The translations under genes and the position numbers were made by a program. Positions 1 through 24,282 of a stretch of DNA of 64,000 bases are shown one piece after another; the stretch's first letter is position 1; every line of letters starts with the position of its first letter. The stretch is from a bacterium (GTDB lineage: Bacteria > Patescibacteriota > Minisyncoccia > Phycocordibacterales > UBA918), in contig JAYSUD010000001.1 of assembly GCA_043719295.1 (NCBI GenBank), positions 189,799 through 253,798 on the forward strand. Reading direction: 5' to 3'. The notes beneath the pieces were generated by a model. It had not been told where the DNA came from. It saw only the letters and a list, made by a program, of their open reading frames with translations, and ran no database searches.

Positions 1-6
1 CGCGAT

Positions 7-336
7 ATGTCGTTTTTGATGGAATACATTGTTCAGAATGAACCCGACATTTTAACGTACACTCGTGAAGATGTTGCACGTGTCTACGCAGAATCAGGTG
101 AGCACCACGATGCAGAAAACACGAACTACTACATTGACGAAATCCCTGGGCTTATTGGTTCAAAAACAGGTTACACAGAATTAGCAGGAGGCAATCTTGT
201 CATAGCTTTTAACGTTGGCTTAAATCGACCAATTGCAATTGTGATTCTTGGTTCAACCCAAACCGAACGATTTACCGACGTTATGAAACTAGTTGAAGAG
301 AGTCAGAAGTACGTACTCGCTTCAGAAACGCAATAG
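7..336 (+). CDS. C-terminal fragment of a PBP/beta-lactamase-fold serine hydrolase (likely D-Ala-D-Ala carboxypeptidase); 5' end lies outside the window
   Basis: KTGYT (KTG box) motif in GSKTGYTELAGG; the ORF runs from the window edge and stops 14 bp before mraY. Confidence 0.45.
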   Translation: MSFLMEYIVQNEPDILTYTREDVARVYAESGEHHDAENTNYYIDEIPGLIGSKTGYTELAGGNLVIAFNVGLNRPIAIVILGSTQTERFTDVMKLVEESQKYVLASETQ

Positions 337-350
337 CATCACAAAAACTT

Positions 351-1409
351 ATGGAATACGCAATATTTAAAATCTTGATACCTGCAATTTTATCTTTTGT
401 GATAGGAATTATCATTACCCCACTACTTACTCACTATCTCTATAAACATAGAGTATGGAAAAAAGAAGGGGGCAAGACCGCGTTAAACGGAACTGTTGCA
501 ACTGAGTTCAACCGACTGAAAGGAAATGACGAAACAAAGACCCCACGAATGGGTGGCATCATTATTTGGGGGAGCGTATTTCTGACCGTACTGCTTCTTT
601 TTATCCTTGAGCGACTTTTCCCACAAACCCTCTTTGCAAATCTTGATTTCTTCAGTCGTGAACAAACATGGATACCCCTTTGTACCTTGGCAATTGGTGC
701 AGGCATCGGATTCCTGAACGATTATTATGATGTTCACCATGATGGAAAAGGAATACGTTTGTCAAAACGGATTCTCATGATTTCAATTCTCTCTGGACTT
801 ATAGGTTGGTGGTTTTACTACAAACTTGGCGTATCACACATCGGTATTCCATTTGATGGTTCGTTATACGTTGGAATACTTATTATTCCATTTTTCATCC
901 TCCTTACTAACGCACTTTATGCAAGTGGCGTTATTGACGGTATTGACGGACTTTCAGGCGGAGTTTTTACCTCAATCTTTTTAGCCTATGCAGGAGTTGC
1001 AGTCATTCAATCACAGTTTGAGATTGCTGCGTTGTGTGCAACTATCGCTGGGGCAACATTAGCGTTTACTTGGTTTAATGTTCCACCTGCTCGTTTTTGG
1101 ATGACGGAAACAGGGTCTATGGCACTAACCCTCACACTCTCAGTTATTGTACTCATGACTGACAACCTTGGTGATGGCCACGGCATCTCATTACTCTTTA
1201 TTATTGGACTTCCATTGATTGCAACTGTTGCTTCAAACGTTTTACAAATTTCATACCGCAAAGCAACCGGCAAGAAACTATTTAGAATTGCGCCACTTCA
1301 TCATCACTTTGAAGCTATTGGATGGCCCTCGTATAAGGTGACCATGCGCTATTGGATTATTAGTATTATGTGCGCGTTGCTTGGAGTTATCTTAGCTAGT
1401 ATTTTTTAG
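351..1409 (+). CDS. mraY: phospho-N-acetylmuramoyl-pentapeptide transferase
   Basis: 10-TM protein with D-D-x-D-G and PLHHHFE motifs typical of MraY. Confidence 0.9.
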   Translation: MEYAIFKILIPAILSFVIGIIITPLLTHYLYKHRVWKKEGGKTALNGTVATEFNRLKGNDETKTPRMGGIIIWGSVFLTVLLLFILERLFPQTLFANLDFFSREQTWIPLCTLAIGAGIGFLNDYYDVHHDGKGIRLSKRILMISILSGLIGWWFYYKLGVSHIGIPFDGSLYVGILIIPFFILLTNALYASGVIDGIDGLSGGVFTSIFLAYAGVAVIQSQFEIAALCATIAGATLAFTWFNVPPARFWMTETGSMALTLTLSVIVLMTDNLGDGHGISLLFIIGLPLIATVASNVLQISYRKATGKKLFRIAPLHHHFEAIGWPSYKVTMRYWIISIMCALLGVILASIF

Positions 1410-1432
1410 TAAAACATGTTTATAAAACTTCA

Positions 1433-1530
1433 GATACGAGGCGTGGAGGAGAATAAGGACGAGGCGTACGGGGAGTACGTTGAGTTCTTGGTCGACGACA
1501 ACAACGAAGTAGGTGAGGGTTTTAAACTTG
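1433..1530 (+). repeat. divergent or partial copy of interspersed repeat family 2 (cgaggcgtac / gtacgtt blocks)
   Basis: Shares the cgaggcgt(ac) and gtacgttg blocks with copies at 55561, 60168 and 63291. Lies in the mraY-ftsW spacer. Confidence 0.35.
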
Positions 1531-1534
1531 TTTT

Positions 1535-2632
1535 ATGCAAAAAGGAGTAGACAGAACGTTACTCGGAATAATCATTTTTTTAGTGGTTTTTGGTTTTTTT
1601 GTATTCTCATCTGCTTCTTTAGGACTTCTCGCACGTGATGGAGCAAACTTTTCTTCCGTTGCATTTAGTCAGGTTGTCTTTGGTATTATCGGTGGCGGTT
1701 TAGCGATGTTTTTAACAAGCCAACTCTTTTATCGAAATTGGCGAAAGTACGCATTTCACATTTTTGTTGCAACAATACTTCTTGCGCTTGCAGTACACTT
1801 GCCATACATAGGAAAAGAGTACGGTGGAGCACGACGATGGATTGAGATTTTTGGTTTTTCGTTTCAACCTGCTGAACTCCTAAAAATTGGGTTTATTGTG
1901 TATATGGCAACCTGGCTCTCTGGGATACAGAAAAACATTCACACCTTTAAACAAGGAACATTACCGTTCCTTGGACTTACTTCTATTGTGGGGGTAGTAA
2001 TGCTCATCCAACCTGACACCGACACATTCTTAATCATGGCTACTGCAGCAACGGCAATGTTTATTACTGCGGGAGGGAGGTGGCGTGACGTTGCATTGAT
2101 GTTTTTTGGATCTATACTTCTTCTTGCACTCTTAGCACTTTCTCGCCCATACATCATGGACCGTATCATGACGTTTTTTAATCCAACGTTAGATCCTCAA
2201 GGAAAAAGTTACCAGATACAACAATCACTTATTGCCATTGGTTCAGGAGGGTTTACGGGAAGGGGATTTGGACAAAGTATTCAAAAGTTTGAATACCTTC
2301 CTGAACCAATTGGTGACTCGGTGTTCGCAGTATATGGAGAGGAATTTGGATTTTTAGGTAGTTCACTCTTAGTAATGCTCCTTGCATTTTTTACCTTCCG
2401 TGGATACAAAATTGCTTCACATGCAACAGACTTGTTTGGGATGCTGTTAGTTGTAGGGTTCATGACACTTATAGTTCTTCAAGCATTTTTAAACATCGCC
2501 GCCATGCTCGCCCTAGCCCCCCTAATGGGCCTCCCACTCCCATTCATAAGCCACGGCGGAACGGCCCTCTTAGCCACACTAGCCTCAGTTGGTATTGTAC
2601 TGAACGTATCAAAGTATCAGAAGAAGAAGTAA
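1535..2632 (+). CDS. ftsW: SEDS-family peptidoglycan glycosyltransferase FtsW/RodA
   Basis: Multi-TM SEDS protein. Its position after mraY in the dcw context favours FtsW. Confidence 0.85.
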   Translation: MQKGVDRTLLGIIIFLVVFGFFVFSSASLGLLARDGANFSSVAFSQVVFGIIGGGLAMFLTSQLFYRNWRKYAFHIFVATILLALAVHLPYIGKEYGGARRWIEIFGFSFQPAELLKIGFIVYMATWLSGIQKNIHTFKQGTLPFLGLTSIVGVVMLIQPDTDTFLIMATAATAMFITAGGRWRDVALMFFGSILLLALLALSRPYIMDRIMTFFNPTLDPQGKSYQIQQSLIAIGSGGFTGRGFGQSIQKFEYLPEPIGDSVFAVYGEEFGFLGSSLLVMLLAFFTFRGYKIASHATDLFGMLLVVGFMTLIVLQAFLNIAAMLALAPLMGLPLPFISHGGTALLATLASVGIVLNVSKYQKKK

Positions 2633-2670
2633 GCCACAGAGCGCAAGCGACAATGGCGAACTTCCGTCCC

Positions 2671-2955
2671 GATTTTTGCTGTTGACAGAGAACCTCACTA
2701 TCAGCCTCAGCGTTGCTGTGCTGATAGTAAGGTTCAGCAAAAATCGCTGGACGTCTCGAACGCTGAGATGACTCGACGGCTTGCAGTGATTAGAATTTGT
2801 TCCCAATTTTCTGCTTCTGACCAAGAACAATACTTACTGCCTCAGCTTTGCTGTGCAGAAAGTATTGTTCAGCAGAAACCGCTGGAACTCTCCAACGCTC
2901 AGCTAACTCCTGCTCTTTCTCAACTTCTGGAACTCTCCAACGCTAAAATGACTCC
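2671..2955 (+). repeat. tandem pair of REP-like imperfect hairpins (family 1): conserved loop ctcagcKttgctgt, conserved 3' tail gctggaactctccaacgct (x2)
   Basis: Hairpin A at 2671-2745 (gatttttgctg...cagcaaaaatc, about 30-bp stem). Hairpin B at 2809-2877 (ttctgct...gcagaaagtattgttcagcagaa). A third copy at 23075-23150 has a different stem sequence with the same loop and tail. Confidence 0.6.
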
Positions 2956-3087
2956 GTCTATATAACAAATATTGCTCATTTTTAAAAAAGATGTACGATT
3001 AAGTACAAATAGTTGTTCAAAGTTGTAGGAGATAGTTACAAACTTATTTTAATACCTATGAACAGAATGCCCGAATGGAGCGACTAC

Positions 3088-6000
3088 ATGACTTTTTTAA
3101 TATTGAAAAAAAGTGCGAGCTGTATGCTCGCGCTTTTTGTTTTATTGAGTCCAGTTTTAGTTAGCGCAGTAGAATCAGAAACGACAGTTTCTACTGAGGA
3201 AACATATAGCGTTGTTGAATCAGAAACTGATAGTGCGGCAGTGACTCAAAGTAAGGCAACAAAAGAAACTCCTCCTGCAGAGGCACCTCAACCAGTATCA
3301 CAAAGCTCTTCTGCAACTTCAGAAACTCAAGCGGGTACTTCGTATCTTTACGACCCTGGTGCACGCTCTGATTTCCCTAAAGTAAATACCCAAGATGGAT
3401 CAATGCAGTTTAGTTATGATGTTAAAGTGCCGCAAGGCAGAGGAATTACGACTCCCTCGCTTACTCTCAGTTACAATAGCAATTTTACCGCTCAAAACAG
3501 TGCCTTTGGTTACGGGTGGTCCATTTCTATTCCGAGTATCAAAAGAATGAATAAACAAGGTACAACGTACCTTTATTCAAAAAACTTTTTTGAATCGAGT
3601 TTTGATGGTGAACTAGTGCGTGTTTCTACATCAACATATTTACCCAAGGTTGATACAGGCAGTTATAGAAAATACAATTTTTCAAACAATGTTTGGACTA
3701 TTACAGAAAAAGATGGAACAAAATATATTTTTGGATCTACCACACAATCACGACACAATAACCCTGCAAGTAGCACGCAAATCTACGCATGGAATCTTGA
3801 AGAAGTTCGTGATACCAACAGTAATTATGCTTCGTATACCTACTTCAAAGATCAGGGACAAATTTACCCAAATACTATTACCTATTCAGGAAATAATGTA
3901 ACTCCGGGAGTATTTTCAGTTGTCTTCAACCGTCAAGCAAGAGGGGACGACATAGTGTCATACGAGACAGGGTTTATTGCAACTACTTCATTTAGAATAA
4001 ATCAAATTGAGACACAGCAGAGTAGCTCATGGCTGCAAAGATATGACCTAGGGTATACAACAGGAGCAAATAGTAATCGATCACTACTTTCTTCTGTCAC
4101 TCAATCAGGGAGAGATGAAAGTGGTGTAGTGTCTAGCTTGCCTTCAACAAATTTTTCTTATGAGACACAAACTACAGGAGATAAGCAGTGGACTACTGAT
4201 GCAAGCTGGACTATTCCTGAAAACTTTATAACTGGCTATGCAAACTTAGACGAAGGCGTCCGTGATTTTGATATTAACGGTGACGGACTCATCGATATTA
4301 TTAAATATAAAAATGCGAAGATTTCTCCTACATACGCAGCAACACCTTCACAAACCATCTGGCTCAATACAGGAACTAGTTGGGCTACAACTTCAACGTG
4401 GACACTACCTCAACCCATGGCAACAACCACACCATTTGCATTTGTAGGGTACGAACCAAGTCTGGGTATTAGTAGTGTCGATCTTGGCGCACGTTTTGCT
4501 GACGTTAATGGAGACGGATTCACCGATATTCTTTGGGGATATAAAACAGACACAACAGGAATGCCGTACCCGTATAATCATAATTTTGGAAAGGTGTATC
4601 TTAACAACAAAACAAATGGATTTACTGAAAGTGCTAATTATGCTCTCCCAACAGACATTCGATTTGTAGTACAAAATAAAGACGGAGGGGTACAAATTGC
4701 TGACATTACGGGAGACGGATTGCCAGACTTACTAAAATCATCCAAGATTGTAGCAAATGGAAGTACAACAATTTCAAAAAAAGTGTACGTAAATAATGGT
4801 GTCACATGGGTAACTGCTTCGACATCATGGAGTATTCCTGAGCTCATTTTAGATCAAGGAGAAGATGCGGGAACGAGGGTTATTGATATAAACGGCGACG
4901 GCCTTGCCGATATACTTCGTAATACCGCAAGTGATTACAATCAAGGAACGTTGCAAGTAAATAAAACATATCTTAACACTGGTTACGGATGGAAAGCAGT
5001 TTCAGATACTTGGGATTCACCAGTGCCATTTGTGTATCTCTTTCAAACACACGGAGTTCAATCGCTTTCACCTCGTTTTGTAGATATTAACGGGGATGGA
5101 CTTATAGACATCTATTCAAATCAAAGTGGATCAATCTATTCAAACACCTCAACCCATATAAACACTGGTGAAGGATGGTCTGATCAATCATCAACTTGGA
5201 CTGAGCCACAACTACTGAAGTTTACGTACGCAAACAATGGAACATGGGGTGCAGAGACAGGTGTTCGCTTGATGGACTTAGACGGCGACAACATGATCGA
5301 CTTTGTGAAGTCTGGTCCAAATAACACATACCCAACTGACAGTCACGAGAAAAAAGTGATGATCCATAATGCTACTGTCCCTGATTTGCTTAAAACAGTT
5401 GAGTACCCTGAAGGTGGATTGCTTCAGGTAAGTTACAAACAGTCTCCTTTGTACAAAAACAGTCTTAATAAAAATCGGAATCCGTTACTTCCTCGTGTTC
5501 TTAATACTGTATTTACACTTACATACGATGACAAAGTAACAACACCCTACACAGACACCTACTCGTACGACGGTGGTTCATACTTTTTTGGCTCATCAAC
5601 AAACAGGTACTTTGCAGGATTCGGAACTACTACTGTTGTTGATTCAATTGGAAACATTACAAAATCATATGCTCATCAAGGTAATACATCACAATCCCAA
5701 CTTGGTGAATTTCAAGACTCTGAAGTAAAAATCGGAAAGCAGTATAGTATCGAAAAGTTTGATGTTAACAAAAATCTGTACGCACGAACTATCTCACAGT
5801 GGGAAAGCTATAACCGTGGTAGTGGCGCGACATACGTCTATAAGACAAAGGATCTCACACAGCAATATGATGGTGATACCGACCACAAAGACACAGTAGT
5901 AATTTACAACGTAGGAGCAGCAGCAGGTAACCTAATTACACTCATTGAACTTGGAGAAGTAACTTCAACAACAACTACTGGTGCATTTGTTGACACAGGT

Positions 6001-9000
6001 ACTGACCGAAAAGATACAACATACCAATACGCACAAAATGCTGGACTTACTATTATTGGCCTACCTTCTAAAGAAACGGTAACCAATCAATCTGCAGTCA
6101 AAGTGAGAGAAACAAACTACTACTACGACAATCAAGTACTTGGCACTGCAACTCTTGGTAACGTAACAAAGAAAGAAGACTGGGTTGTTGGTTCAACATA
6201 CGTCAATACCAGAAGCACCTATAACAGCTATGGCCTTCCTACAAAATTGATGAACACCAAAGGGGCGACGACTTCACTTAAGTACGACACACTTAACTTA
6301 TATCCGACAGTTATATCTAATCCGTTGTTGCAAAGTGCAACAAGCTCTTTTGACTATACCAATGGAAGAGAGAAAACTTTATTAACTCCAAACAATGTTC
6401 TCTTTGAGACAAAGTTTGATGGACTTGATAGAGTAATCCAAACAAAAAAACCAGATCCTACTACAGGAGTAAGTACCATTGCAAGCGAACTAAGTTACGG
6501 AACTACGAGAAATGCATTTAATGTATTTTCTACATCCAACGTCACTCCTTCTGTAGCAGTACTTGAATATCAATACCTTGATGGCTTTGGAAGAAAAATT
6601 CAAAATCGAAAAGAAGCTGAAACAGCAGGTCAATACGCCGTATCTGATTACACGTACGGAAAAAACGGCAGGCTCATAAAAGCATCTCTCCCGTACTTTA
6701 GTAATGGTACAAATAAAACTTCACCAACATCACAAATAAACTTATATACTTCATACAAATATGATCCACTTGAGCGCGTAAGTGCTGTGGTGACAACTAT
6801 TGGTACAACATCAACTGCCTATGACCAATGGAGACAAACTGAAACAAATGCAAAGGGAAAACAAAAAGTGTATGTGTATGATGCATACAATAACCTTGTT
6901 GCTGTAGAAGAGAAGGAAGGTGTAAATACCTATACCACAAGTTACCTCTACGACCTTAATAAAAACCTTACCAAAGTTACTGACTCACTGGGGAACATTA
7001 GAAATGCCACCTATGACGGACTCAGTCGTCGCCTTACACTCCAAGATCTTCACGCAACTGCAGATACCACCTTTGGATCCTGGACATCAAGCTACGATAC
7101 AGAAGGGAACATAACTTCAATTACGGACCCTAAAGCTCAAGTTATCAATCGCACCTACGATACACTAAATAGACAACTCACAGAAAACTACACAGGGACT
7201 GCAGGTACAGAACTTACTTATGCGTACGACACCTGTACTAAAGGAATAGGATTCCTCTGTACTGCCAAAAACACTGATGCCACAACTACTTACAAATACA
7301 ATCCTGCCGGGGGAGTGTATGTACAAAATGAAACAGTTGGTAGTACAAAGTACACAGCTACAACAACCTACACACTAAGGGGCGACGTAAGTACTTCAAC
7401 TTATCCAGATCGCGCACAAGTTGTGTATCGATTCGACGGAGCTGGTAACATTACTGCAATAGGAGAAAAAGAACTCACGGGTGCACTTCATGACATAGTA
7501 ACCAACATTGACTACGGTCCACATGGACAAATCATCTACCGTGAAAACGGTAACGGTGTGTATACTAATTACGTGTACGACGCTAACGCCCTCTACAGAC
7601 TCAAAGCACAGAAGACAACCGCTGTTGCAGGCACCGGAGGAAGTGGTGTAGATCAACAAGCACTTGAGGCTGAGCTTATCTTCACACTTCCCCAAAGTAC
7701 AACAACTTTAAGTGATTATACGGGGAGTTTTGCCACCTCAAGTACTGAGGCGACATCAAGCGCAGTTGCTACTGATTTTGAAACTGTGGAAACTTCCGCT
7801 ACTTCGTCACAGAGTACAAAAGCAATAAACCAAGAAATTAAGTCTGCTACAACTACAACACAAATAAAAAAAGATGTCGCCACAACTACACAAAACAGCA
7901 AAGTTGACGTACCAGAATCAGAACGCATCAAAGATGTTCAGGGTGCAAAAATTGCGTCGTCACTCTTAGGTAAAAACTTCCTTGAACGTGCAGAGCTAAA
8001 AGCTCAAGCGATGTCTTTAGTTAAAATTGGAACTTCAACTCCAATAGTTGACAGTAAATTTGGTATAACTCTTGAAATTCAAGCAATTGAAAAAATAGAA
8101 AATGGGGTACAAGTATTTATCCGTGCATGGAAAAATGGAAAACAACTTGGCTTCGGGCCAGATGGTTCTATTGAAATTGAGCGTATTCGTATCATCAATC
8201 CACCGATTCTCGTACGACGCAACGGTCAACTTGTAGAGGACCTCAAGGTAGCACTTGAAGAGTCAGTACTCCATACTGTTGCAAGTATCGGACAAGAAAA
8301 CACATCAATTCTTGCAGGTTCAATCGGGAACACAACTACAACAGTCTATCCTGCTTCAGGTGCAATAAGTCCAGTTGATGGACGATGTTCAGAAGACAGA
8401 TACCCTAGTTGGACACAAGTTAGAGACAGCCTAAATTGTCGAATTAGTAGTGTTGTTGAAGCAAACGGCAATCTTTATAACACACTAGGTACCGGCAGTG
8501 GTGCTTCTAATTATGCAATCACAAGAAACTATACGTTTTTTGATACAAGTGCTATCCCTGATATGGATGCAATTTACTCTGCGACGTATTCGCTTTTTGG
8601 GAATGGACCAGGCGATACAAGTTTGGCAGGTACAGTGCAACGGGTTCATGTAGTAACTTCAAATTCTATAAATTCAAGTAACATCTACACCTCAGATTTT
8701 CCGAGTGTAGGGTCAGTATCATTAGGTGAATCTGACAATTCCTGGGACACTGCAAACTATAACGACTTCCCACTAAACGCAACGGGGATGAGTGCTGTAT
8801 CAAAAGTAGGAATTACAAAATTTGCTATCCGCGGTCACTATGACTTGATGGATATTGTTCCCGACAACGCAAACGAATTCAGTGTTGGTTTCTACTTTGC
8901 AGATCAAGCCGGAACAACCAATGATCCAAAACTCATTGTGCAACACACTGCAAACGCAATTCCACTTCCACCTATATTGCTTAGAACCGAAGGAGTTGCT

Positions 9001-10902
9001 AACCCAACAGGAGTTCAAGATTCTACACCAGATTTTTCTGCAATCTTCAGAGATAGCGATGTCGGTAATGTGGCTTCAGCATACCAATTACAAGTAAGTG
9101 CATCATCAACAAACTGGAATACTCTTGTATGGGATTCACTCCAAACAACCCTTAACCCAACAGTAGCTATTGGTGCCCGAAGTCAAGAAATCGCGTACGG
9201 AGGAGGAGCTTTAGTTCCAAGCACTAATTACTACTGGCGAATTAAATTCTTTGACAACCTCAATACCGCAGGGTCATGGAGTACCACAACCGCAAGCTTC
9301 TCACTTGCAAACTTTATTGGCATTAAACATCTTATCTATAATTACGACGTACTTGGTAACATCACCTCTATTAGCGATGTTACAAATCCACTAAGTGCAA
9401 CCGCTAACGTGTATACCTACGACGACCTCAATCGATTACTAACGTATGCGACAGCACCGGTAACAGTTACTCAAACAGCAGATCCACTCTTACCAACAAT
9501 TGCACTTGGATCAAACACCAATCAAGAAGCATACACATACAACTCCCTTGGCAACCTCCTAACCAAAACAGGACAAGGAAGTTACATATACGCTGGTAAC
9601 ACAGCCTCTTTGTACGCAAATCCTCACGCGCCAACAAGTATAAACAGCGTGTCACACACCTACGACCAAAACGGTAACCTCACCAACAAAGGTACCAACA
9701 CCTACTCATGGCACTATACCAACCGTATGGCAGGCTCTGTTGAAGGTGTAAACACCCTCACATACACATACAACACCCAAGGCCAACGTATCTCAAAGAC
9801 AAAGGGAAGTACAGTAACTCGGTATCCTTTCGTGAATTACGAAGTACGAGGAAGTACCACAACCAAACAAGTGTTCTTAGGGGATACACTGGTAACTACA
9901 ATAGAAAACAACGGCAGCTCCTCCAAAGCCTACCAAGTCCACCCTGACCATCTTGGAAGTACACTCTTTACCACCACAGAACAAGGGAAGGTGGCACAAC
10001 TTTTGTCATACAAACCGTATGGAGAAGAGACTATGGGGACGAGTTCTAATAGAGTACAGAGGCACTATATTGGACAGACCAGTGACAGTGAGACAAGTCT
10101 TGATTACTTGAATGCGAGGTACTATGATCCGAGGAAGGGGGAGTTTATTTCACAGGATCCGGTGTTTTTAAGTAATTCACAGAATCTTGCAAATCCGCAG
10201 TCATTAAACAGTTATAGTTATGCTGAAGGGAATCCTATTAATCGGAAGGATCCAAGTGGGTTGGCTACTTGGCAAGGATCTAAAAAGGCAATCTTAAAAA
10301 GTACAGTAAAGATTCTCCAGAGTTATGAGTCACTTCTTCGAAGTGCAAAAGCCGATCCGGTACGTACAGCTAAAGCTGTGGGAAAGTCTGCGGGGAGTTC
10401 GGCTGTAAATGTACTATTTAATTCTGGTGGAATGACTTATGATGCAGCAGCAGCAACAAGAGACAGCATAAAGAAATTCGGAAACGGTTCTGATGCGGTT
10501 CAAGATCAAATGATTGGGAATGGAGCTGTATTTGTGGTAGGTTTCTTTCTTCCGGGAAAGAATTTAAAGAGGATCCCAGATGATGCCTTAGTGGTTAGAG
10601 GAGGTGGTCCTTCCAACTTCGCCCCAGACAAGTTCAGGATTGCAGAGCATAAAAACGCTCCTGGAGTAGTCGGATTCTCAGTGCAATGTGCTTCAGGAAT
10701 GTGTGCAAATGACCTTGCAAGTAATCTACCAAATCAACAGGTTGCACAAACAACTGTTGCACAAATTAGGGCAGCGGGTGGAGACGTTGTTGCTACACCT
10801 GGCCACGGCCAACATTCAACCGTCACAGGGTTAGATGGGCAAGCAGCAAGTCAAGTGCAGTGGGGATTCTTTACAAACCCTAATCCTTGGGATGGCTCAT
10901 GA
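3088..10902 (+). CDS. secreted giant polymorphic toxin: signal peptide, SpvB/TcB N-domain, FG-GAP/VCBS-like DxNGDG repeats, an FN3-like insert, RHS/YD repeats, an RHS repeat-associated core, a DPSGL cleavage motif and an unclassified C-terminal toxin domain (alternative start at 3013)
   Basis: SpvB-like PSLTLSYNSNF...GYGWSISIP motif. Six DINGDGLIDI-type repeats. Many YxYDxxGRL RHS repeats. YQVHPDHLGS...YKPYGEE...ARYYDPRKGEFISQDPV core. PINRKDPSGL followed by a 212-aa tail. Confidence 0.85.
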   Translation: MTFLILKKSASCMLALFVLLSPVLVSAVESETTVSTEETYSVVESETDSAAVTQSKATKETPPAEAPQPVSQSSSATSETQAGTSYLYDPGARSDFPKVNTQDGSMQFSYDVKVPQGRGITTPSLTLSYNSNFTAQNSAFGYGWSISIPSIKRMNKQGTTYLYSKNFFESSFDGELVRVSTSTYLPKVDTGSYRKYNFSNNVWTITEKDGTKYIFGSTTQSRHNNPASSTQIYAWNLEEVRDTNSNYASYTYFKDQGQIYPNTITYSGNNVTPGVFSVVFNRQARGDDIVSYETGFIATTSFRINQIETQQSSSWLQRYDLGYTTGANSNRSLLSSVTQSGRDESGVVSSLPSTNFSYETQTTGDKQWTTDASWTIPENFITGYANLDEGVRDFDINGDGLIDIIKYKNAKISPTYAATPSQTIWLNTGTSWATTSTWTLPQPMATTTPFAFVGYEPSLGISSVDLGARFADVNGDGFTDILWGYKTDTTGMPYPYNHNFGKVYLNNKTNGFTESANYALPTDIRFVVQNKDGGVQIADITGDGLPDLLKSSKIVANGSTTISKKVYVNNGVTWVTASTSWSIPELILDQGEDAGTRVIDINGDGLADILRNTASDYNQGTLQVNKTYLNTGYGWKAVSDTWDSPVPFVYLFQTHGVQSLSPRFVDINGDGLIDIYSNQSGSIYSNTSTHINTGEGWSDQSSTWTEPQLLKFTYANNGTWGAETGVRLMDLDGDNMIDFVKSGPNNTYPTDSHEKKVMIHNATVPDLLKTVEYPEGGLLQVSYKQSPLYKNSLNKNRNPLLPRVLNTVFTLTYDDKVTTPYTDTYSYDGGSYFFGSSTNRYFAGFGTTTVVDSIGNITKSYAHQGNTSQSQLGEFQDSEVKIGKQYSIEKFDVNKNLYARTISQWESYNRGSGATYVYKTKDLTQQYDGDTDHKDTVVIYNVGAAAGNLITLIELGEVTSTTTTGAFVDTGTDRKDTTYQYAQNAGLTIIGLPSKETVTNQSAVKVRETNYYYDNQVLGTATLGNVTKKEDWVVGSTYVNTRSTYNSYGLPTKLMNTKGATTSLKYDTLNLYPTVISNPLLQSATSSFDYTNGREKTLLTPNNVLFETKFDGLDRVIQTKKPDPTTGVSTIASELSYGTTRNAFNVFSTSNVTPSVAVLEYQYLDGFGRKIQNRKEAETAGQYAVSDYTYGKNGRLIKASLPYFSNGTNKTSPTSQINLYTSYKYDPLERVSAVVTTIGTTSTAYDQWRQTETNAKGKQKVYVYDAYNNLVAVEEKEGVNTYTTSYLYDLNKNLTKVTDSLGNIRNATYDGLSRRLTLQDLHATADTTFGSWTSSYDTEGNITSITDPKAQVINRTYDTLNRQLTENYTGTAGTELTYAYDTCTKGIGFLCTAKNTDATTTYKYNPAGGVYVQNETVGSTKYTATTTYTLRGDVSTSTYPDRAQVVYRFDGAGNITAIGEKELTGALHDIVTNIDYGPHGQIIYRENGNGVYTNYVYDANALYRLKAQKTTAVAGTGGSGVDQQALEAELIFTLPQSTTTLSDYTGSFATSSTEATSSAVATDFETVETSATSSQSTKAINQEIKSATTTTQIKKDVATTTQNSKVDVPESERIKDVQGAKIASSLLGKNFLERAELKAQAMSLVKIGTSTPIVDSKFGITLEIQAIEKIENGVQVFIRAWKNGKQLGFGPDGSIEIERIRIINPPILVRRNGQLVEDLKVALEESVLHTVASIGQENTSILAGSIGNTTTTVYPASGAISPVDGRCSEDRYPSWTQVRDSLNCRISSVVEANGNLYNTLGTGSGASNYAITRNYTFFDTSAIPDMDAIYSATYSLFGNGPGDTSLAGTVQRVHVVTSNSINSSNIYTSDFPSVGSVSLGESDNSWDTANYNDFPLNATGMSAVSKVGITKFAIRGHYDLMDIVPDNANEFSVGFYFADQAGTTNDPKLIVQHTANAIPLPPILLRTEGVANPTGVQDSTPDFSAIFRDSDVGNVASAYQLQVSASSTNWNTLVWDSLQTTLNPTVAIGARSQEIAYGGGALVPSTNYYWRIKFFDNLNTAGSWSTTTASFSLANFIGIKHLIYNYDVLGNITSISDVTNPLSATANVYTYDDLNRLLTYATAPVTVTQTADPLLPTIALGSNTNQEAYTYNSLGNLLTKTGQGSYIYAGNTASLYANPHAPTSINSVSHTYDQNGNLTNKGTNTYSWHYTNRMAGSVEGVNTLTYTYNTQGQRISKTKGSTVTRYPFVNYEVRGSTTTKQVFLGDTLVTTIENNGSSSKAYQVHPDHLGSTLFTTTEQGKVAQLLSYKPYGEETMGTSSNRVQRHYIGQTSDSETSLDYLNARYYDPRKGEFISQDPVFLSNSQNLANPQSLNSYSYAEGNPINRKDPSGLATWQGSKKAILKSTVKILQSYESLLRSAKADPVRTAKAVGKSAGSSAVNVLFNSGGMTYDAAAATRDSIKKFGNGSDAVQDQMIGNGAVFVVGFFLPGKNLKRIPDDALVVRGGGPSNFAPDKFRIAEHKNAPGVVGFSVQCASGMCANDLASNLPNQQVAQTTVAQIRAAGGDVVATPGHGQHSTVTGLDGQAASQVQWGFFTNPNPWDGS

Positions 10903-11282
10903 AAATAAAAAACTTAAGTGATTTGCGTAATGCAGATATAAAATTCAAATTAGAGAAAATACCTACAAACGAAATTATTATAAAAAGCGTAGATAATTTT
11001 TGCGACGGTCCACTAAGTGGAGAATGCACTTGGCGGAACAAAGAATATTATTATCAGTGCTTTGATCAGATTGATCCACATACAGACGAAGATCTTCGCC
11101 CAAGGAAGTATCTTTTGCTTCATTTAACTCCTCAACAATTTAACGAAAATTCTCTACTAGAAAAACTCTATGCCAAAAGTGCAGACAGTGATTCTCTGAG
11201 AAATGAATATCTATTTGAGTATGAAAAATCTACTCCACAAATAATACGTAGAGAACAGATTATCGCTTGGTTTGAGGAATGA
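10899..11282 (+). CDS. putative cognate immunity protein of the RHS toxin
   Basis: Its ATG overlaps the toxin TGA stop (ATGA), which suggests translational coupling. Small cytoplasmic protein with no recognisable domains. The position is typical for RHS immunity genes. Confidence 0.5.
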   Translation: MKIKNLSDLRNADIKFKLEKIPTNEIIIKSVDNFCDGPLSGECTWRNKEYYYQCFDQIDPHTDEDLRPRKYLLLHLTPQQFNENSLLEKLYAKSADSDSLRNEYLFEYEKSTPQIIRREQIIAWFEE

Positions 11283-11411
11283 ACAAAGTGTCGATAGAAT
11301 AGACGCAGCAATAGCTGATAGTTATATGACACCAGCAGGAGACAGTCGCGCAATGGGGCATAAAAGGGGATAAGTCCAATAAAAACTCAAATATCATGGT
11401 CTAATAAATTA

Positions 11412-12083
11412 ATGCCTCGCATGAACAGAGTTGCCGTAGGTAACACTGTGTATCACGTACTTAATCGTGCAAATGGTCGTGCTCAAATCTTTCACACTGA
11501 TGCAGAATACCAACACTTCGAATCACTCCTTTTAGAAGGTGTGGAGCTTATCGGTATGAGAATACTCGCATACTGCATCATGCCAAATCACTGGCATCTT
11601 GTACTCTATCCACATAAGGATGGAAATATGAGTGAGTTTATGCGGTGGGTTACTACCACACATGTTCGACAACGACGGACACAAACAAAAAGTGTCGGTG
11701 CAGGTCATTTGTATCAAGGTACATACAAATCGTTTCCAATTGAAACCGATCACCATTTACTCACCGTGATACGCTATGTTGAACAAAATCCATTACGAGC
11801 AAAGCTTGTGACTCAAGCAGAACAATGGCAATGGTCATCTTTATATAGAAGGGAGAGAAATAATGACGAAGATAAAAAGTTTCTGTCAGTACTTCCAACA
11901 GAATTACCAGAGAATTATCTTGAATCAGTTAATACTATTCTTTCTGAATCAGTTCTAACCAGCGTTCGTCATTCTCTCACCAAGGGTACTCCGTATGGTG
12001 GAGATATTTGGACAAGGGAGATGATTGATAAGTATAATTTAGGGAGTACCATACGAGGTCCAGGGAGACCAAGATTAGATTAA
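11412..12083 (+). CDS. IS200/IS605-family HUH tyrosine transposase-like protein (RAYT-like, COG1943) with a C-terminal extension
   Basis: HUH motif CIMPNHWHLVLYP and a catalytic-Tyr region HLYQGTYKS. No TnpB partner. A single gene flanked by repeat-rich DNA. Confidence 0.75.
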   Translation: MPRMNRVAVGNTVYHVLNRANGRAQIFHTDAEYQHFESLLLEGVELIGMRILAYCIMPNHWHLVLYPHKDGNMSEFMRWVTTTHVRQRRTQTKSVGAGHLYQGTYKSFPIETDHHLLTVIRYVEQNPLRAKLVTQAEQWQWSSLYRRERNNDEDKKFLSVLPTELPENYLESVNTILSESVLTSVRHSLTKGTPYGGDIWTREMIDKYNLGSTIRGPGRPRLD

Positions 12084-12208
12084 TATTACAACATGAATAT
12101 TGCAGAAATAACGGACGTATCCCTGTTACCTCAAAAATAGAAATCTACCCTCCTCTGTTTTAGTTGCAACTATAGATTGTTGTAGTGCTATACTTATTTC
12201 AATAATTT

Positions 12209-13327
12209 ATGATCAAGATTGTTCTAGTTGGAGGGGGGAGTGGAGGGCATTTTTATCCGCTTATTGCGGTAGCTGAGCAAGTGGCAGCGTATAAAAAAAG
12301 AGGACTTGATGTAGAGATGTACTACATGGGTACAGAGGCCTATAACCAGGCTGACCTTGATGCCAATGGGATTTCTTTTATCTACTGTCCATCGGGAAAG
12401 AGACGAAAGTATTTTTCACTCTTAAACTATTTTGATATTTTTAAAGTTATCTATGGTTTTTTTGTAGCGGTTTATAAACTGTACATTCTCTATCCTGATG
12501 TTGTCTTTAGTAAGGGAAGTTATACGAGCGTTCCGGTAACGCTTGCTGCATGGGTGTTACGTATTCCGGTTGTTGTACACGAATCAGACACACGTCCCGG
12601 AAGTGCAAACAAACTTGAGTCACGGTTTGCACGATACGTTGCAATTTCTTTTGAAGAAGTAGCACAGTACTTTCCTCAAGACAAAATTGGACTTACTGGA
12701 ATCCCACTTCGTAAAGCGTTTGTAGAAAAAATTGATAATCCTGTTATGGAGCTTGGGCTACCTTCTGACAAACCACTCATCTTTGTTACCGGTGGTTCTT
12801 TTGGTGCACAGCGACTTAATAACCTCATTTTAGAATCGCTTAACGAACTGTTGCCTTCATACGTCATACTCCATCAAACAGGGGAGACCAATGCAAAAGA
12901 AGTGCAGAGTTATGCGTCAACTATTATTAATGATACACAACTCCTTGCGCACTACTTTGTAAAAGGTTCTTTAACAGCGAGAGAAATGAACCTTGCTTCA
13001 AGTGTTGCGTCACTTATCATCTCAAGAGCGGGAACGGGAAGTATCTATGAAATAGCTCAAAAAGGGAAGCCGGCAATTTTGATCCCAATACCCGAAGCAA
13101 TTAGCCACGATCAAAAGACAAACGCATATGCGTATGCACGAACGGGAGGTGCGTCGGTCCTTGAGGAGGGGAATTTAACTGACGGTTTGCTTGCTTCTGA
13201 AATTAGCCGTATTATGGAAAACCAAGAGGTATACGATTCTATGCAGAAAAATGCACTCGCATTTGGACATACTGACGCGAGCCTAAAGATTGCTGATACC
13301 CTAATTGGGATCGCTCAAGAACACTAG
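12209..13327 (+). CDS. murG: undecaprenyldiphospho-muramoylpentapeptide beta-N-acetylglucosaminyltransferase
   Basis: GGGSGGHFYP N-terminal motif and GT28 family architecture. dcw context. Confidence 0.9.
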   Translation: MIKIVLVGGGSGGHFYPLIAVAEQVAAYKKRGLDVEMYYMGTEAYNQADLDANGISFIYCPSGKRRKYFSLLNYFDIFKVIYGFFVAVYKLYILYPDVVFSKGSYTSVPVTLAAWVLRIPVVVHESDTRPGSANKLESRFARYVAISFEEVAQYFPQDKIGLTGIPLRKAFVEKIDNPVMELGLPSDKPLIFVTGGSFGAQRLNNLILESLNELLPSYVILHQTGETNAKEVQSYASTIINDTQLLAHYFVKGSLTAREMNLASSVASLIISRAGTGSIYEIAQKGKPAILIPIPEAISHDQKTNAYAYARTGGASVLEEGNLTDGLLASEISRIMENQEVYDSMQKNALAFGHTDASLKIADTLIGIAQEH

Positions 13328-21785: not shown

Positions 21786-22040
21786 CTAGTAGAGTTCGCT
21801 ATGTGAACCAATTTTATAAAATATATACTTACCCGACTCAATTTGAAATTGTGCTCTTAAATCACCTGTAACATTCATACTTAAGAGAAACGCTTCTGTA
21901 CCTTGCAAAGAATGTACGTTAAGTAAGGGATGGTAATTATTTTCAATAAGTAACGCTAAACGTTCTTTAAACTGAGCCTTAACCTTTTGTGGAAGTTTTT
22001 CGTATTGTTTCTTAAATTTCTTCCTAAATTCAATTTCCAT
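21786..22040 (-). CDS. type II toxin-antitoxin system RelE/YafQ-family toxin
   Basis: 84 aa with a RelE-fold sequence pattern (KLPQKVKAQFKERL...GYKIG). Lies immediately downstream of a DinJ-like antitoxin. Confidence 0.7.
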   Translation of the reverse strand: MEIEFRKKFKKQYEKLPQKVKAQFKERLALLIENNYHPLLNVHSLQGTEAFLLSMNVTGDLRAQFQIESGKYIFYKIGSHSELY

Positions 22041-22045
22041 ATAAA

Positions 22046-22318
22046 CTACGAATCAAGCCATGCTACCGCATCATCAACTGTTGAAAATGTAGGGGACATC
22101 CCCTTTCCTTGCCTTGCTTCATCAATAGCTTTGTTGAGCTCTTTGATAACAGACGGTCGCAGCATTGGTTCACGTTGGACGGTAAGAGATCCAGATTTAA
22201 TAAATTCTTTTAAATACACATTGACGACAGTAGAAAGCGGTACACCCAAATACTCTGCTAAGGATTTAGCTCTTTCTTTTACCTCTATATCAACTTTAGA
22301 ATTAAGGACTGTTTTCAT
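22046..22318 (-). CDS. RelB/DinJ-family antitoxin
   Basis: About 90 aa with an N-terminal ribbon-helix-helix-like region (IEVKERAKSLAEYLGVPLSTVVNVYLKEF), adjacent to the toxin. Confidence 0.7.
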   Translation of the reverse strand: MKTVLNSKVDIEVKERAKSLAEYLGVPLSTVVNVYLKEFIKSGSLTVQREPMLRPSVIKELNKAIDEARQGKGMSPTFSTVDDAVAWLDS

Positions 22319-22520
22319 AATATAACTATTATACACACAAAGGTTATTTTTTCAATACAAGTTAAGATATTTAGGTACTTTCAAAATTCACTGTAACATA
22401 GCCACTTTATGGTTAAAGCTACTTCATTTATCCCCTTTCAATCTATAAAATACATACAAAGTGATACAATGAATCTAGATAGTACAAGAATTAATTCGTT
22501 ATAATTTATAGTATATATAC

Positions 22521-22934: not shown

Positions 22935-23074
22935 GCGTAGCGATTATTGCGAATTTACCTTCTTACAGAAGCTGTCCGCTCATTGGATACTTTATTTCGT
23001 TACACTCATAAAGTCTCTCAATGAGTCTTGCGAAAGTGTCCCACACTTTCTCACCCAGTTTTCGCGCTGATCCA

Positions 23075-23150
23075 GAGTTCGTTTCAATGCCTCAGCGTTA
23101 GCTGTGCATTGAATAGAACTCAGCGGAAACTGCTGGAACTTTCCAACGTT
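23075..23150 (+). repeat. REP-like hairpin family 1 copy (stem gagttcgtttcaatgc/gcattgaatagaactc, loop ctcagcgttagctgt, tail gctggaactttccaacgtt)
   Basis: Same loop and 3' tail as 2671-2955, with a different, self-complementary stem sequence. Confidence 0.6.
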
Positions 23151-23187
23151 TAGGTAAATCGATCTGTTGTAAAAGCACTCAACATAG

Positions 23188-23580: not shown

Positions 23581-23689
23581 AGTGTTATTACTAACAATGT
23601 GACCGTAGGCCGTATCAGTGGCTACAACTGATCCGGTTCCTGATACAGCGATAAACGCTGCAATTACGGTGGATATTATAAGCCAAATG

Positions 23690-24060
23690 TCTTATCTAAC
23701 AAATAAGCGAGCGAGCGTCTTAGAAAAATGAATGCATTCATTTTTCTATGACCGAGCGAGCGCCATTTGTATCTTGGATACAAATTTGCGAGCACCCGAC
23801 ATAGATAATTGATTTATGCGAATTTCTCTAAAACCGATTGACGTGCAATTTGTATCCGCAGATACAAATAAGCGAGCAAACTCAATAGGTTAATTGAACT
23901 AACAACTTCCCTACTTCATTTACTCCCATATGTACCAACGTAGATTCAAATTGCAGTCGAACGCTGTAGGTTGTTGATATTACTCACTTCCCTACAATCA
24001 CGCATCGCCATATGTATCAAAAGATACAAAAAGCGGCCGGAGCCACTTACGCCAATGATT
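23690..24060. repeat. array of four palindromic sites aTTTGTATC-N3-4-GATACAAAt+aaGCGAGC plus a 22-bp perfect palindrome aaaaatgaatgcattcattttt
   Basis: Palindromic sites at about 23694 (degenerate), 23762, 23845 and 24010. Perfect palindrome at 23728-23749. The spacing is irregular, so this is not a CRISPR array. Confidence 0.4.
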
Positions 24061-24117
24061 ATAGCATATCCATGCTCAAAGTCAAGTTATACAACTACTT
24101 TTACCCTGTGTCAAAGT

Positions 24118-24150
24118 CCAAAAAACGGCTCAATTGAGCCGTTTTAAGTA
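24118..24150 (-). terminator. rho-independent terminator for the 24283-24858 gene
   Basis: aaaacggctcaattgagccgtttt stem followed by TTTTTTGG on the minus strand. Confidence 0.55.
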
Positions 24151-24282
24151 TTGACATGCAAGTAGTTTGTTGAGTAACAATTCTCTATCTATCAATAATC
24201 ACAAATACAAAATTGAAATAAAAATAGGATCTGGCCAAAAATAGCCAGATCCACCCATTAACATACCAACCAGAGTTTTTCA

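Follow-up and report, generated by a model that had tools for sequence, protein, structure and literature searches.

The ftsW-murG interval and its accessory block

The adjacency of ftsW and murG is among the most conserved in bacteria, and genomes of the candidate phyla radiation (CPR, Patescibacteria) are small and tightly packed. In the 64-kb stretch of Patescibacteria DNA analyzed here (contig JAYSUD010000001.1, positions 189,799 to 253,798; referred to below as the window), these two genes lie 9,576 bp apart. The gene order, all on the + strand, is a DD-carboxypeptidase fragment (7–336), mraY (351–1409), ftsW (1535–2632), the interval, murG, gltX and an M23 peptidase gene. The interval itself carries a giant open reading frame (ORF) for an RHS protein, a small ORF in overlap (ATGA) with the stop codon of the former and a Y1_Tnp transposase gene. 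An earlier note on this DNA had described about 9.6 kb intercalated between ftsW and murG with an RHS toxin, an immunity gene and an HUH transposase gene, a description which holds, with the immunity gene as a candidate. The interval is read here, with a probability of roughly 0.7, as a composite accessory block consisting of an RHS toxin system, a separate TIRtron (a Y1 transposase gene with its own terminal inverted repeats) and unrelated hairpin repeats in the ftsW-murG spacer of a CPR genome. The flanks and limits of the block are as follows.

1535 to 2632, + strand: ftsW, left flank (PF01098, E=7e-91; TIGR02614, 326.8 bits)
2633 to 12185, + strand: accessory block, approximate limits, set by the ftsW stop codon and the −10-like element before murG; contains two hairpin copies of ~110 nt, the RHS toxin gene, the candidate immunity gene and the 759-bp TIRtron
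3108 to 3148, + strand: terminator-like hairpin within the signal-peptide codons of the RHS gene (13-bp stem, 6 GC pairs, then the T-run TTTTTGTTTT)
12186 to 12194, + strand: −10-like element TGCTATACT, 15 nt upstream of the murG ATG
12209 to 13327, + strand: murG, right flank (PF03033 and PF04101; TIGR01133, 232 bits)

For comparison, a MurG scan of one representative genome per GTDB species gave 12 loci. All come from metagenome-assembled genomes of Patescibacteria, which bear the labels Saccharibacteria, Kaiserbacteria or Zambryskiibacteria; their MurG is 42–68% identical to that of the window, and their MraY/FtsW up to 82%. The genes mraY-ftsW-murG-gltX were contiguous in all 12, with pepS11 upstream in ten, and the ftsW-murG spacer measured 12–140 bp throughout. 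This bears out the claim of the earlier note that mraY-ftsW and murG are normally contiguous, and the order which would have spoken against an insertion, namely the same RHS arrangement in relatives, was found in none of the 12 genomes. No homologs of the RHS, candidate immunity or Y1 proteins were detected within ±10 kb of ftsW-murG in any of them. The run pepS11-mraY-ftsW-murG-gltX would thus appear to be a conserved and tightly packed one in this CPR group.

In loci L001 and L002, whose FtsW is 81% identical to that of the window, murG follows some 25 bp after ftsW. Little besides a −10-like sequence (TGnTAnAnT) just before the murG ATG is found in the spacers of L001, L002, L003 and L012, this sequence being TGCTACACT in L001 and L002, TGGTATACT in L012 and TGCTAAAAT in L003. 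As the window retains this element at the same position (12186–12194), the block is placed between the ftsW stop codon and the −10-like element. The block is an insertion, real at the level of the sequence. Parsimony says that it was gained in the lineage of the window, where a composite 9.5-kb block would have come to lie in a spacer of ~25 bp.

Both junctions of the block were also found in Logan contigs from two SRA runs (SRR22198340 and SRR23617205), which match the window at 100%. Contig L146 corresponds to window positions 1–2655 (ftsW plus 23 nt of the insert) and L104 to 2626–12090 (the insert plus 7 nt of ftsW), while L147 and L148 start at 12104 and contain the right inverted repeat of the TIRtron followed by murG. 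At the left junction the ftsW stop codon runs on into insert sequence, and at the right junction the right end of the transposase element runs on into murG. The two junction sequences therefore exist in independent assemblies of two datasets. The 127-aa protein of the small ORF is also on record from a 269-kb NCBI contig and from Logan assemblies.

No canonical terminator was detected between ftsW and the start of the RHS gene, and thus read-through from ftsW is possible. The terminator-like hairpin at 3108–3148, canonical in form, begins 20 nt after the likely RHS start codon and is terminator-like in either direction; it may act as an attenuator or be there by coincidence. The −10-like element before murG is presumed from its position and conservation in relatives to be a promoter. 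The murG element and the terminator-like hairpin argue against a dependence on read-through, and nothing in the sequence demands the coupling of toxin expression to cell-wall genes which the earlier note had proposed. The presence of an intact 7.8-kb toxin gene at this site suggests that even this cluster tolerates accessory DNA if the flanking genes keep their own signals.

The RHS toxin gene and its partner gene

The features of the toxin system, with domain limits given as nucleotide positions, are as follows.

3088 to 10902, + strand: RHS polymorphic toxin gene, TcB/TcC-like, 2,604 aa (alternative ATG at 3059; mechanical ORF from TTG at 3013)
3088 to 3168, + strand: predicted Sec signal peptide MTFLILKKSASCMLALFVLLSPVLVSA, read by eye from the translation
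3388 to 3861, + strand: SpvB domain
4498 to 4734, + strand: FG-GAP domain
5230 to 5667, + strand: TcdB_toxin_midN domain
6529 to 6753, + strand: DUF6443
7093 to 7206, + strand: RHS repeat
8980 to 9291, + strand: Ig-like domain
10009 to 10263, + strand: Rhs_assc_core
10249 to 10263, + strand: DPSGL motif at the end of the RHS core, boundary of shell and toxin
10264 to 10899, + strand: C-terminal toxin region, 212 aa, with a conserved, catalytic-looking domain of 110 aa at 10570–10899
10899 to 11282, + strand: candidate immunity gene, 127 aa, its ATG overlapping the RHS stop codon (ATGA)

The start of the RHS gene was chosen on the basis of a GGAG ribosome-binding site at 3077–3080, 7 nt before the ATG at 3088; the Logan gene call uses the ATG at 3059. 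The protein matches the RHS shell and core models PF05593, TIGR01643 and TIGR03696 (69 bits against a cut-off of 32.5) and has DPSGL at the end of its core. Its N-terminal part is TcB-like, with matches to PF03534 and PF12256 and weak matches to TcdB1 and YenB. Among solved structures (Rhs proteins of type VI secretion systems, T6SS, namely 8H8B, Tse5 8CP6 and RhsA 7Q97; the TcB/TcC proteins TcdB1, 6L7I, and YenB, 4IGL), its nearest relatives are the T6SS Rhs proteins and, for the N-terminus, TcdB1/YenB. A 2,540-aa RHS protein encoded by the complete Kaiserbacteria genome CP066682.1 (locus L018) is 36% identical to it over 2,395 aa and also begins with a hydrophobic leader. The L018 shell ends in a LysM+Ntox44 toxin and is followed by an unrelated gene, whereas the toxin region of the window is unrelated to that one and unannotated, so that variable C-terminal toxins are found on homologous shells.

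This architecture is that of the RHS/YD-repeat polymorphic toxins of the TcdB/TcaC-like class (Zhang et al., 2012; PMC3482391): an N-terminus with SpvB and TcdB_midN, FG-GAP, a YD/RHS shell, an Rhs-associated core which ends in DPxGL (PxxxxDPxGL), a variable C-terminal toxin and a small gene directly after it, with orphan core-toxin cassettes present in loci related to that of the window. It differs from known RHS systems by its occurrence in a CPR genome, its Sec-type leader, the lack of any PAAR, VgrG or T6SS context in the 64 kb, its location between ftsW and murG and a toxin domain which matches no described family. No TcA translocator partner was found either, as the window has no other ORF of more than 722 aa. 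It is proposed that a Sec-exported TcB/TcC-like shell would enclose the 212-aa toxin and release it after cleavage at DPSGL, which is taken here to be the autoproteolysis motif of RHS cores. This would place large, predicted Sec-exported TcB/TcC-like RHS toxins with an undescribed domain in episymbiotic Patescibacteria, and bears on how these bacteria attack or hold their hosts and competitors.

The C-terminal toxin region gave no sequence match in Pfam, NCBIfam or the PDB, and only 19 homologs of the toxin domain were found among 5.8 billion proteins. Eight of the 19 carry an RHS/YD-shell core matching PF25023 and three more are named RHS by their source. Within the 110-aa core the invariant residues are an Arg (in VVRGG), a Ser (in GFS), a Gly-Asp-Val and a His. 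An AlphaFold2 model of the domain (pLDDT 96.7) had as its top Foldseek matches members of the ADP-ribosyltransferase (ART) superfamily, namely AvrPphF/HopF (E=0.35, TMq 0.49), Tpt1/KptA, ExoA and iota toxin. Against an ART assignment stands the fact that none of the fold matches is significant (E 0.16–5, the best at 0.16–0.35; TMq ≤0.49), and no ART match was obtained for the domain with Pfam. ART-fold toxins carry a catalytic triad of the R-S-E or H-Y-E type, beside which stand the invariant R, S, D and H residues here. On the basis of the model, the released toxin may have an ART-like fold and activity, which is regarded as a lead only.

The translationally coupled 127-aa ORF downstream is likely to encode the immunity protein, as suggested by its position. 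It has no family match and three homologs at 54–57% identity. One of these (P0141) is encoded in three metagenome contigs (L105–L107), where its gene immediately follows the C-terminal toxin region of an RHS protein and is itself followed by a further RHS core fragment; this is the classical toxin-immunity-orphan layout. Weighing against this assignment, the closest toxin domains (L059, L100 and L101) are followed by a different, mutually homologous protein of 78–84 aa (L059, 1171–1422; L100, 2152–2394; L101, 6685–6921), a family which was looked for in the window and is absent there. The same toxin domain is thus accompanied by two unrelated partner families, one of 127–133 aa (window and L105–L107) and one of 78–84 aa (L059, L100 and L101), and the immunity assignment of the 127-aa ORF is for this reason one by neighborhood alone.

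It should also be noted that in L100, another CPR assembly, an orphan RHS core with a toxin of the window family and the 80-aa partner (1137–3127) is located immediately upstream of mraZ-rsmH-ftsL-ftsI-murE. Here a second RHS cassette adjoins division and cell-wall genes.

The TIRtron and its association with RHS loci

Downstream of the candidate immunity gene lies the transposase element, with the following parts.

11366 to 12124, + strand: TIRtron, 759 bp (Y1 gene with 12-nt terminal inverted repeats)
11366 to 11377, + strand: left terminal inverted repeat GGGGATAAGTCC
11412 to 12083, + strand: TIRYT-type Y1/HUH transposase gene, 223 aa (PF01797, E=6e-16)
12113 to 12124, − strand: right terminal inverted repeat AGGGATACGTCC, with a change in the first G of the otherwise conserved GGGG

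The protein has the HUH motif NHWH, the catalytic Tyr in IRYVEQNPLRA and a conserved C-terminal extension ending in GRP; NHWH and IRYVEQNP are invariant in 28 Y1 sequences. Its sole PDB match is the E. coli TnpA_REP (4ER8, E=0.002). An exact look-up of the window protein returned no record, because the Logan gene call ends at the contig end. Homologs number 4,285, almost all of about 223 aa, and are 65–91% identical across Pacebacteria, Kaiserbacteria, Taylorbacteria and other Parcubacteria. The Y1 protein is thus more conserved than MurG, MraY and FtsW (42–82%) in comparable genomes, which implies either strong constraint or frequent horizontal transfer across CPR classes.

The earlier note had called this gene IS200/RAYT-like. 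Its Y1/HUH nature and its likeness to TnpA_REP stand, while the two family names do not. An IS200/IS605 TnpA was rejected on the score with NF033573 (transpos_IS200; 22 bits against a cut-off of 55), on length (223 aa against ~130–150 aa) and on the presence of terminal inverted repeats. A RAYT associated with repetitive extragenic palindromic (REP) sequences was rejected since the best NCBIfam model, NF047646 (REP_Tyr_transpos), gave 64.7 bits, below its cut-off of 80, there are only two occurrences of the flanking 12-mer in the 64 kb and the hairpins do not flank the gene. With the RAYT/REPtron type (E. coli TnpA_REP, 4ER8; Bertels et al., 2017; PMC5581495) it shares the HUH and Tyr motifs and a single gene copy in the window; it departs from that type in its sub-cut-off score, in having simple inverted repeats and not REP hairpins or REPINs, and in the lack of a dispersed REP family in the window.

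The ends of the element were located by aligning the flanks of six loci (the window and five others). Similarity begins at AAA(A/T)GGGGATAAGTCC, ~35 nt before the Y1 ATG, and ends at AATAACGGACGTATCCC, ~25 nt after the Y1 stop codon, which is an inverted copy of the start. The 12-mer of the repeat occurs exactly twice in the window against 0.19 copies expected by chance. Most of 80 metagenome Y1 loci have the same architecture, with repeats of 16–28 nt built on GGGGATAAG, GGGGACAGCCACC or GGGGTCAGCCACC. No Rfam match to the flanks was obtained at gathering or E-value thresholds.

A Y1 gene with terminal inverted repeats and a GGGGWSAS motif has been described as TIRYT/TIRtron (Di Nocera et al., 2013; PMC3733652), and TIRYT corresponds to subclass 2.1 of TnpA_Y1, with a helix-turn-helix (HTH)-like C-terminal extension of the Bac_DnaA_C, HTH_23 or HTH_28 kind (Quentin et al., 2018; PMC6006769). 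The window element resembles this type in its TnpA_REP-like Y1 protein, longer than IS200 TnpA, in its inverted repeats ~30 nt off with a GGGGWSAS-type core, and in having no REP family and few repeat copies. It differs from the consensus in its core GGGGATAA/AGGGATAC, which is two positions off strict GGGGWSAS; the other loci have GGGGATAA, GGGGACAG or GGGGTCAG, the latter two in distant members of the family. The C-terminal extension of ~80 aa gave no Pfam HTH match at E≤1 in 28 members. Judged by its sequence, the window transposase is a TIRYT, of the TnpA_REP-like kind. The published TIRYT sets did not cover CPR.

There are indications that the TIRtron is a mobile unit of its own. In L082 a repeat-bounded TIRtron of 776 bp is present twice (9132–9907 and 10918–11693), the copies being 100% identical, 1.8 kb apart and without target duplication, from which the unit looks mobile. 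The proposed explanation accordingly treats the 759-bp TIRtron downstream of the toxin system as a separate unit which would move as a discrete element. The right repeat of the window has AGGG where the other loci examined have GGGG, and this copy may be crippled and no longer mobile.

Two further observations concern the surroundings of such elements. Partial tandem copies of AATGGGG lie just outside many of the inverted repeats (e.g., L018, 9930–9966; L048; L090), and the window has AATGGGGCATAAAAGGGGATAAG at 11351–11377; these may serve as additional binding sites or be traces of repeated cleavage. In L013 a diverged duplicate of the rpsI 3′ end (~90%) at 9826–9963 is directly upstream of the left repeat of a Y1 element (Y1 at 10001), with a 163-aa ORF between the duplicate and the resident rpsI.

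The main new lead from this analysis is the association of TIRtrons with RHS loci, in or beside which they sit far above chance in the compact CPR genomes sampled here. Among 83 non-redundant Y1 loci besides the window, RHS-derived coding sequence occurs within 2 kb of Y1 in ten, against none in a control of 585 kb lying farther from Y1 or in the dcw loci (rough Fisher p=1.5e-5). The two are on the same strand in 10/10 of these loci, and in 9/10 the RHS sequence has its 3′ end turned towards the 5′ end of Y1. It should be noted that a same-strand orientation with neighbors is general for Y1 and not specific to RHS. Within the Y1 family tree, the genes linked to RHS occur at scattered positions. 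Most other Y1 loci adjoin restriction-modification, toxin-antitoxin, ribosomal or metal-homeostasis genes, with restriction-modification, helicase, AcrB and ribonucleotide reductase genes among the large neighbors, and a Pfam scan of 128 upstream neighbors of Y1 showed no shared partner family other than RHS. No paper linking RHS to IS200, RAYT or TIRYT was found in the literature searched.

Several of the loci show TIRtrons within RHS sequence. In L045, L046 and L026 the RHS ORF continues without a break into the left repeat, copy A of the L082 TIRtron (9132–9907) interrupts an RHS core fragment after HGDHLGG, and in L025 and L059 the Y1 gene has RHS core or toxin fragments on its far side. 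The points of insertion vary (after SQDP, after HLGG, in the toxin region, in SpvB) and there is therefore no common target sequence. The most economical explanation is that RHS 3′ regions and orphan toxin cassettes are among the few sites in compact genomes at which a TIRtron insertion does no harm. A comparable situation exists in E. coli, where Rhs elements have downstream orphan toxin/immunity cassettes together with IS-like H-rpt (ISAs1) sequences. There too an insertion-sequence-type element is habitually located at the Rhs 3′ side among displaced toxin/immunity cassettes, although the transposase is of the DDE type in that case and an HUH Y1 here, and the phylum is another.

A more specific tie was also considered, in which TIRtrons would target RHS 3′ regions and orphan cassettes in Patescibacteria. 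The spread of the association over the Y1 tree (11 of 84 loci, the window included), the arrays of toxin cassette, small ORF and Y1, the repeats which cut RHS ORFs and a Y1 conservation above that of housekeeping genes are all compatible with it, and it is offered as a tentative suggestion of low probability. The same goes for its extension, by which homology on the right-hand side or single-strand cleavage would drive cassette turnover and the spread of the locus, including that to ftsW-murG. An active role of the TIRtron in cassette turnover or locus mobility is regarded as doubtful. The RHS-TIRtron neighborhood does provide a testable biological context for the TIRYT enzymes, which were described in 2013.

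A competing explanation makes the three genes one mobile module, in which the Y1/TIRYT enzyme mobilizes the whole RHS-immunity block or swaps its cassettes. In its favor, the order RHS, small ORF, Y1 recurs at an unrelated chromosomal site in the Kaiserbacteria genome CP066682.1 (L018) and in several metagenome contigs, the orphan fragments of L025 and L059 lie beyond Y1, in L023 and L082 small ORFs stand between tandem copies of Y1, and Y1 is the sole recombinase-like gene of the block. However, homology between loci stops at the inverted repeats, a search upstream of the RHS gene showed no copy of the repeat, and what has been duplicated in L082 is the 776-bp TIRtron only. Furthermore, most Y1 loci are without RHS and of very varied context, the insertion points within RHS differ and the right repeat of the window has its mutated GGGG, so that this explanation is considered improbable. 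The earlier note had spoken of an accessory, probably mobile module: the block is indeed accessory, as shown by its absence in relatives, but nothing shows Y1 moving all 9.5 kb of it.

Origin of the block and the hairpin repeats

With the composite accessory block as the preferred reading, a number of results weigh against it. The overlap of L146 and L104 is exactly 30 nt (2626–2655). The Logan assembly is assumed to use k=31, for which an overlap of exactly 30 nt is what a fork in the graph would give, with alternative paths at 2626–2655; an insert-free allele in the population is possibly one candidate for the alternative path. The tetranucleotide correlation of the insert with the rest of the window is 0.88, as compared with 0.94–0.97 for other 9.5-kb chunks, a mild outlier status which may reflect a single repetitive RHS gene. 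The closest relatives are only 68–82% identical in flanking proteins. No direct or inverted repeat of at least 8 nt, such as a target-site duplication or att-like sequence, links the two junctions, and no integrase or tRNA was found to mark them.

These results bear on a further alternative, namely that the assembler joined a 9.5-kb RHS contig between ftsW and murG, or that only some cells carry it there. The Logan breaks at 2655/2626 and 12090/12104, by which the insert forms a contig of its own, and the low tetranucleotide correlation are consistent with such an artefact or mixture. On the other hand, the contigs on either side of the left break share the junction 30-mer of ftsW stop codon and insert sequence, in each of the two runs murG stands on contigs which start within the right-hand end of the TIRtron, Logan contigs are short in general here (those with murG being only 2.2 kb) and the GC and GC at third codon positions (GC3) of the insert match the flanks; this alternative is judged to be quite unlikely. 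An assembly chimera and the GC profile had been named in the earlier note as matters to check. As to the first, both junctions were reproduced by the contigs of two runs but these contigs fork at the left one; as to the second, the GC content (0.41 against ~0.39; GC3 of the insert 0.31) is close to that of the flanks while the tetranucleotide profile is the outlier of the window. The Logan contigs of both runs start and stop at the same points of the insert junctions (2626–2655 and 12090–12104).

The hairpins belong to a repeat with three copies in the window.

2662 to 2786, + strand: hairpin copy 1 (minimum free energy −51.4 kcal/mol, z=−4.9; covariance model 133.8 bits)
2797 to 2921, + strand: hairpin copy 2 (z=−6.1; 136.8 bits), 76% identical to copy 1 with compensatory stem changes
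2922 to 2955, + strand: extra copy of the 3′ tail (CTGGAACTCTCCAACGCT...)
23047 to 23172, + strand: hairpin copy 3 (123.1 bits), outside the block, ~20 kb away

Copy 1 consists of an outer stem, a 9-nt bulge, a 16-bp inner stem, the conserved loop CTCAGCGTTGCTGT and a conserved 3′ tail. All three copies form the same long fold (z −4.6 to −6.1) with an inner stem of 16–19 bp, the conserved 9-nt bulge, the apex CUCAGC-KUU(A)-GCUG and the tail GCUGGAACUYUCCAACG. In the inner stem 9 of 19 pairs are changed on both sides and yet paired, a count from three copies only. Overall 92.9% of cells are paired, the observed score was reached in 0/500 shuffles and no slid register came close. Searches with blastn-short, regular expressions and the covariance model revealed no further copy in the window, and none was found in the 12 dcw loci, ~90 Y1 loci and viral contigs (~1 Mb of CPR and viral DNA). 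There was no Rfam match at gathering or E-value thresholds and no GGGGWSAS motif, and a + strand scan for intrinsic terminators (GC-rich stem with a T-run behind it) did not call the hairpins.

The doublet which the earlier note had placed at 2671–2955 is thus real. Its description as REP-like elements bounding the block did not stand, as hairpins are found only on the left, the third copy is at 23047–23172, the right end is the inverted repeat of the Y1 element at 12113–12124 and the stems are of ~75 nt, have no GTAG tag and differ in their arms between copies. A REP or REPIN identity was rejected on these grounds (~110 nt in length as against 20–40 nt, stems of ~75 nt, no GTAG/CGTC tag, variable arms, three copies in 64 kb). 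The related view that they are REP/REPIN-type elements serviced by the adjacent Y1, as in a REPtron, takes its appeal from the block having both palindromic intergenic repeats and a TnpA_REP-like gene. It is very unlikely, given that the hairpins are 8.4 kb from the Y1 gene and do not flank it, that this gene has unrelated inverted repeats of its own, that variable arms with a conserved loop and tail are the opposite of REPINs, that GTAG tag and GGGGWSAS motif are both lacking and that no hairpin occurs in 686 kb of other Y1 and dcw loci.

The hairpins are a lineage-specific structured intergenic repeat and not REPs, element ends or terminators. In the proposed explanation the two upstream copies would be members of a different repeat family from the TIRtron repeats and would not mark the ends of the block, at the right end of which no copy is found. 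Dispersed structured intergenic repeats are well known (REP/BIME, ERIC, Correia/NEMIS, RUP and BOX). Like these, the present ones are palindromes of ~100 nt in 3′ intergenic regions, single or in tandem; unlike these, their stems covary (9/19 pairs) around a conserved loop and tail, and neither an Rfam match nor an outside copy exists in the DNA searched.

That ftsW-RHS-murG is the ancestral order, lost in the relatives, has in its favor that only 12 genomes were compared, the nearest being ~70–80% identical in flanking proteins, but it would need repeated clean deletions down to spacers of 12–140 bp across Saccharibacteria, Kaiserbacteria and Zambryskiibacteria and is extremely improbable. 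Every component of the composite block belongs to a kind already known, be it the RHS polymorphic toxin system, the TIRtron or the dispersed hairpin repeat, and it is their location which is unusual. Three leads are worthwhile, namely the association of RHS loci with TIRtrons in Patescibacteria, the toxin domain, which is undescribed, and the family of covarying hairpins.

A DoxX gene precedes hairpin copy 3, and a separate canonical terminator follows the hairpin at a distance of 40 nt. Just upstream of this DoxX gene, a YafQ/ParE-like toxin gene and a RelB-like antitoxin gene are located at 21786–22336 on the − strand. Beyond the hairpin, ~600 nt of non-coding sequence (23680–24280) contain three TGTATC-N3-4-GATACA palindromes at 23768, 23851 and 24013, spaced by 83 and 162 nt, where 0.06 would be expected by chance, with ACAAATAAGCGAGC repeats interleaved. 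From its sequence this region looks like an iteron or operator array.

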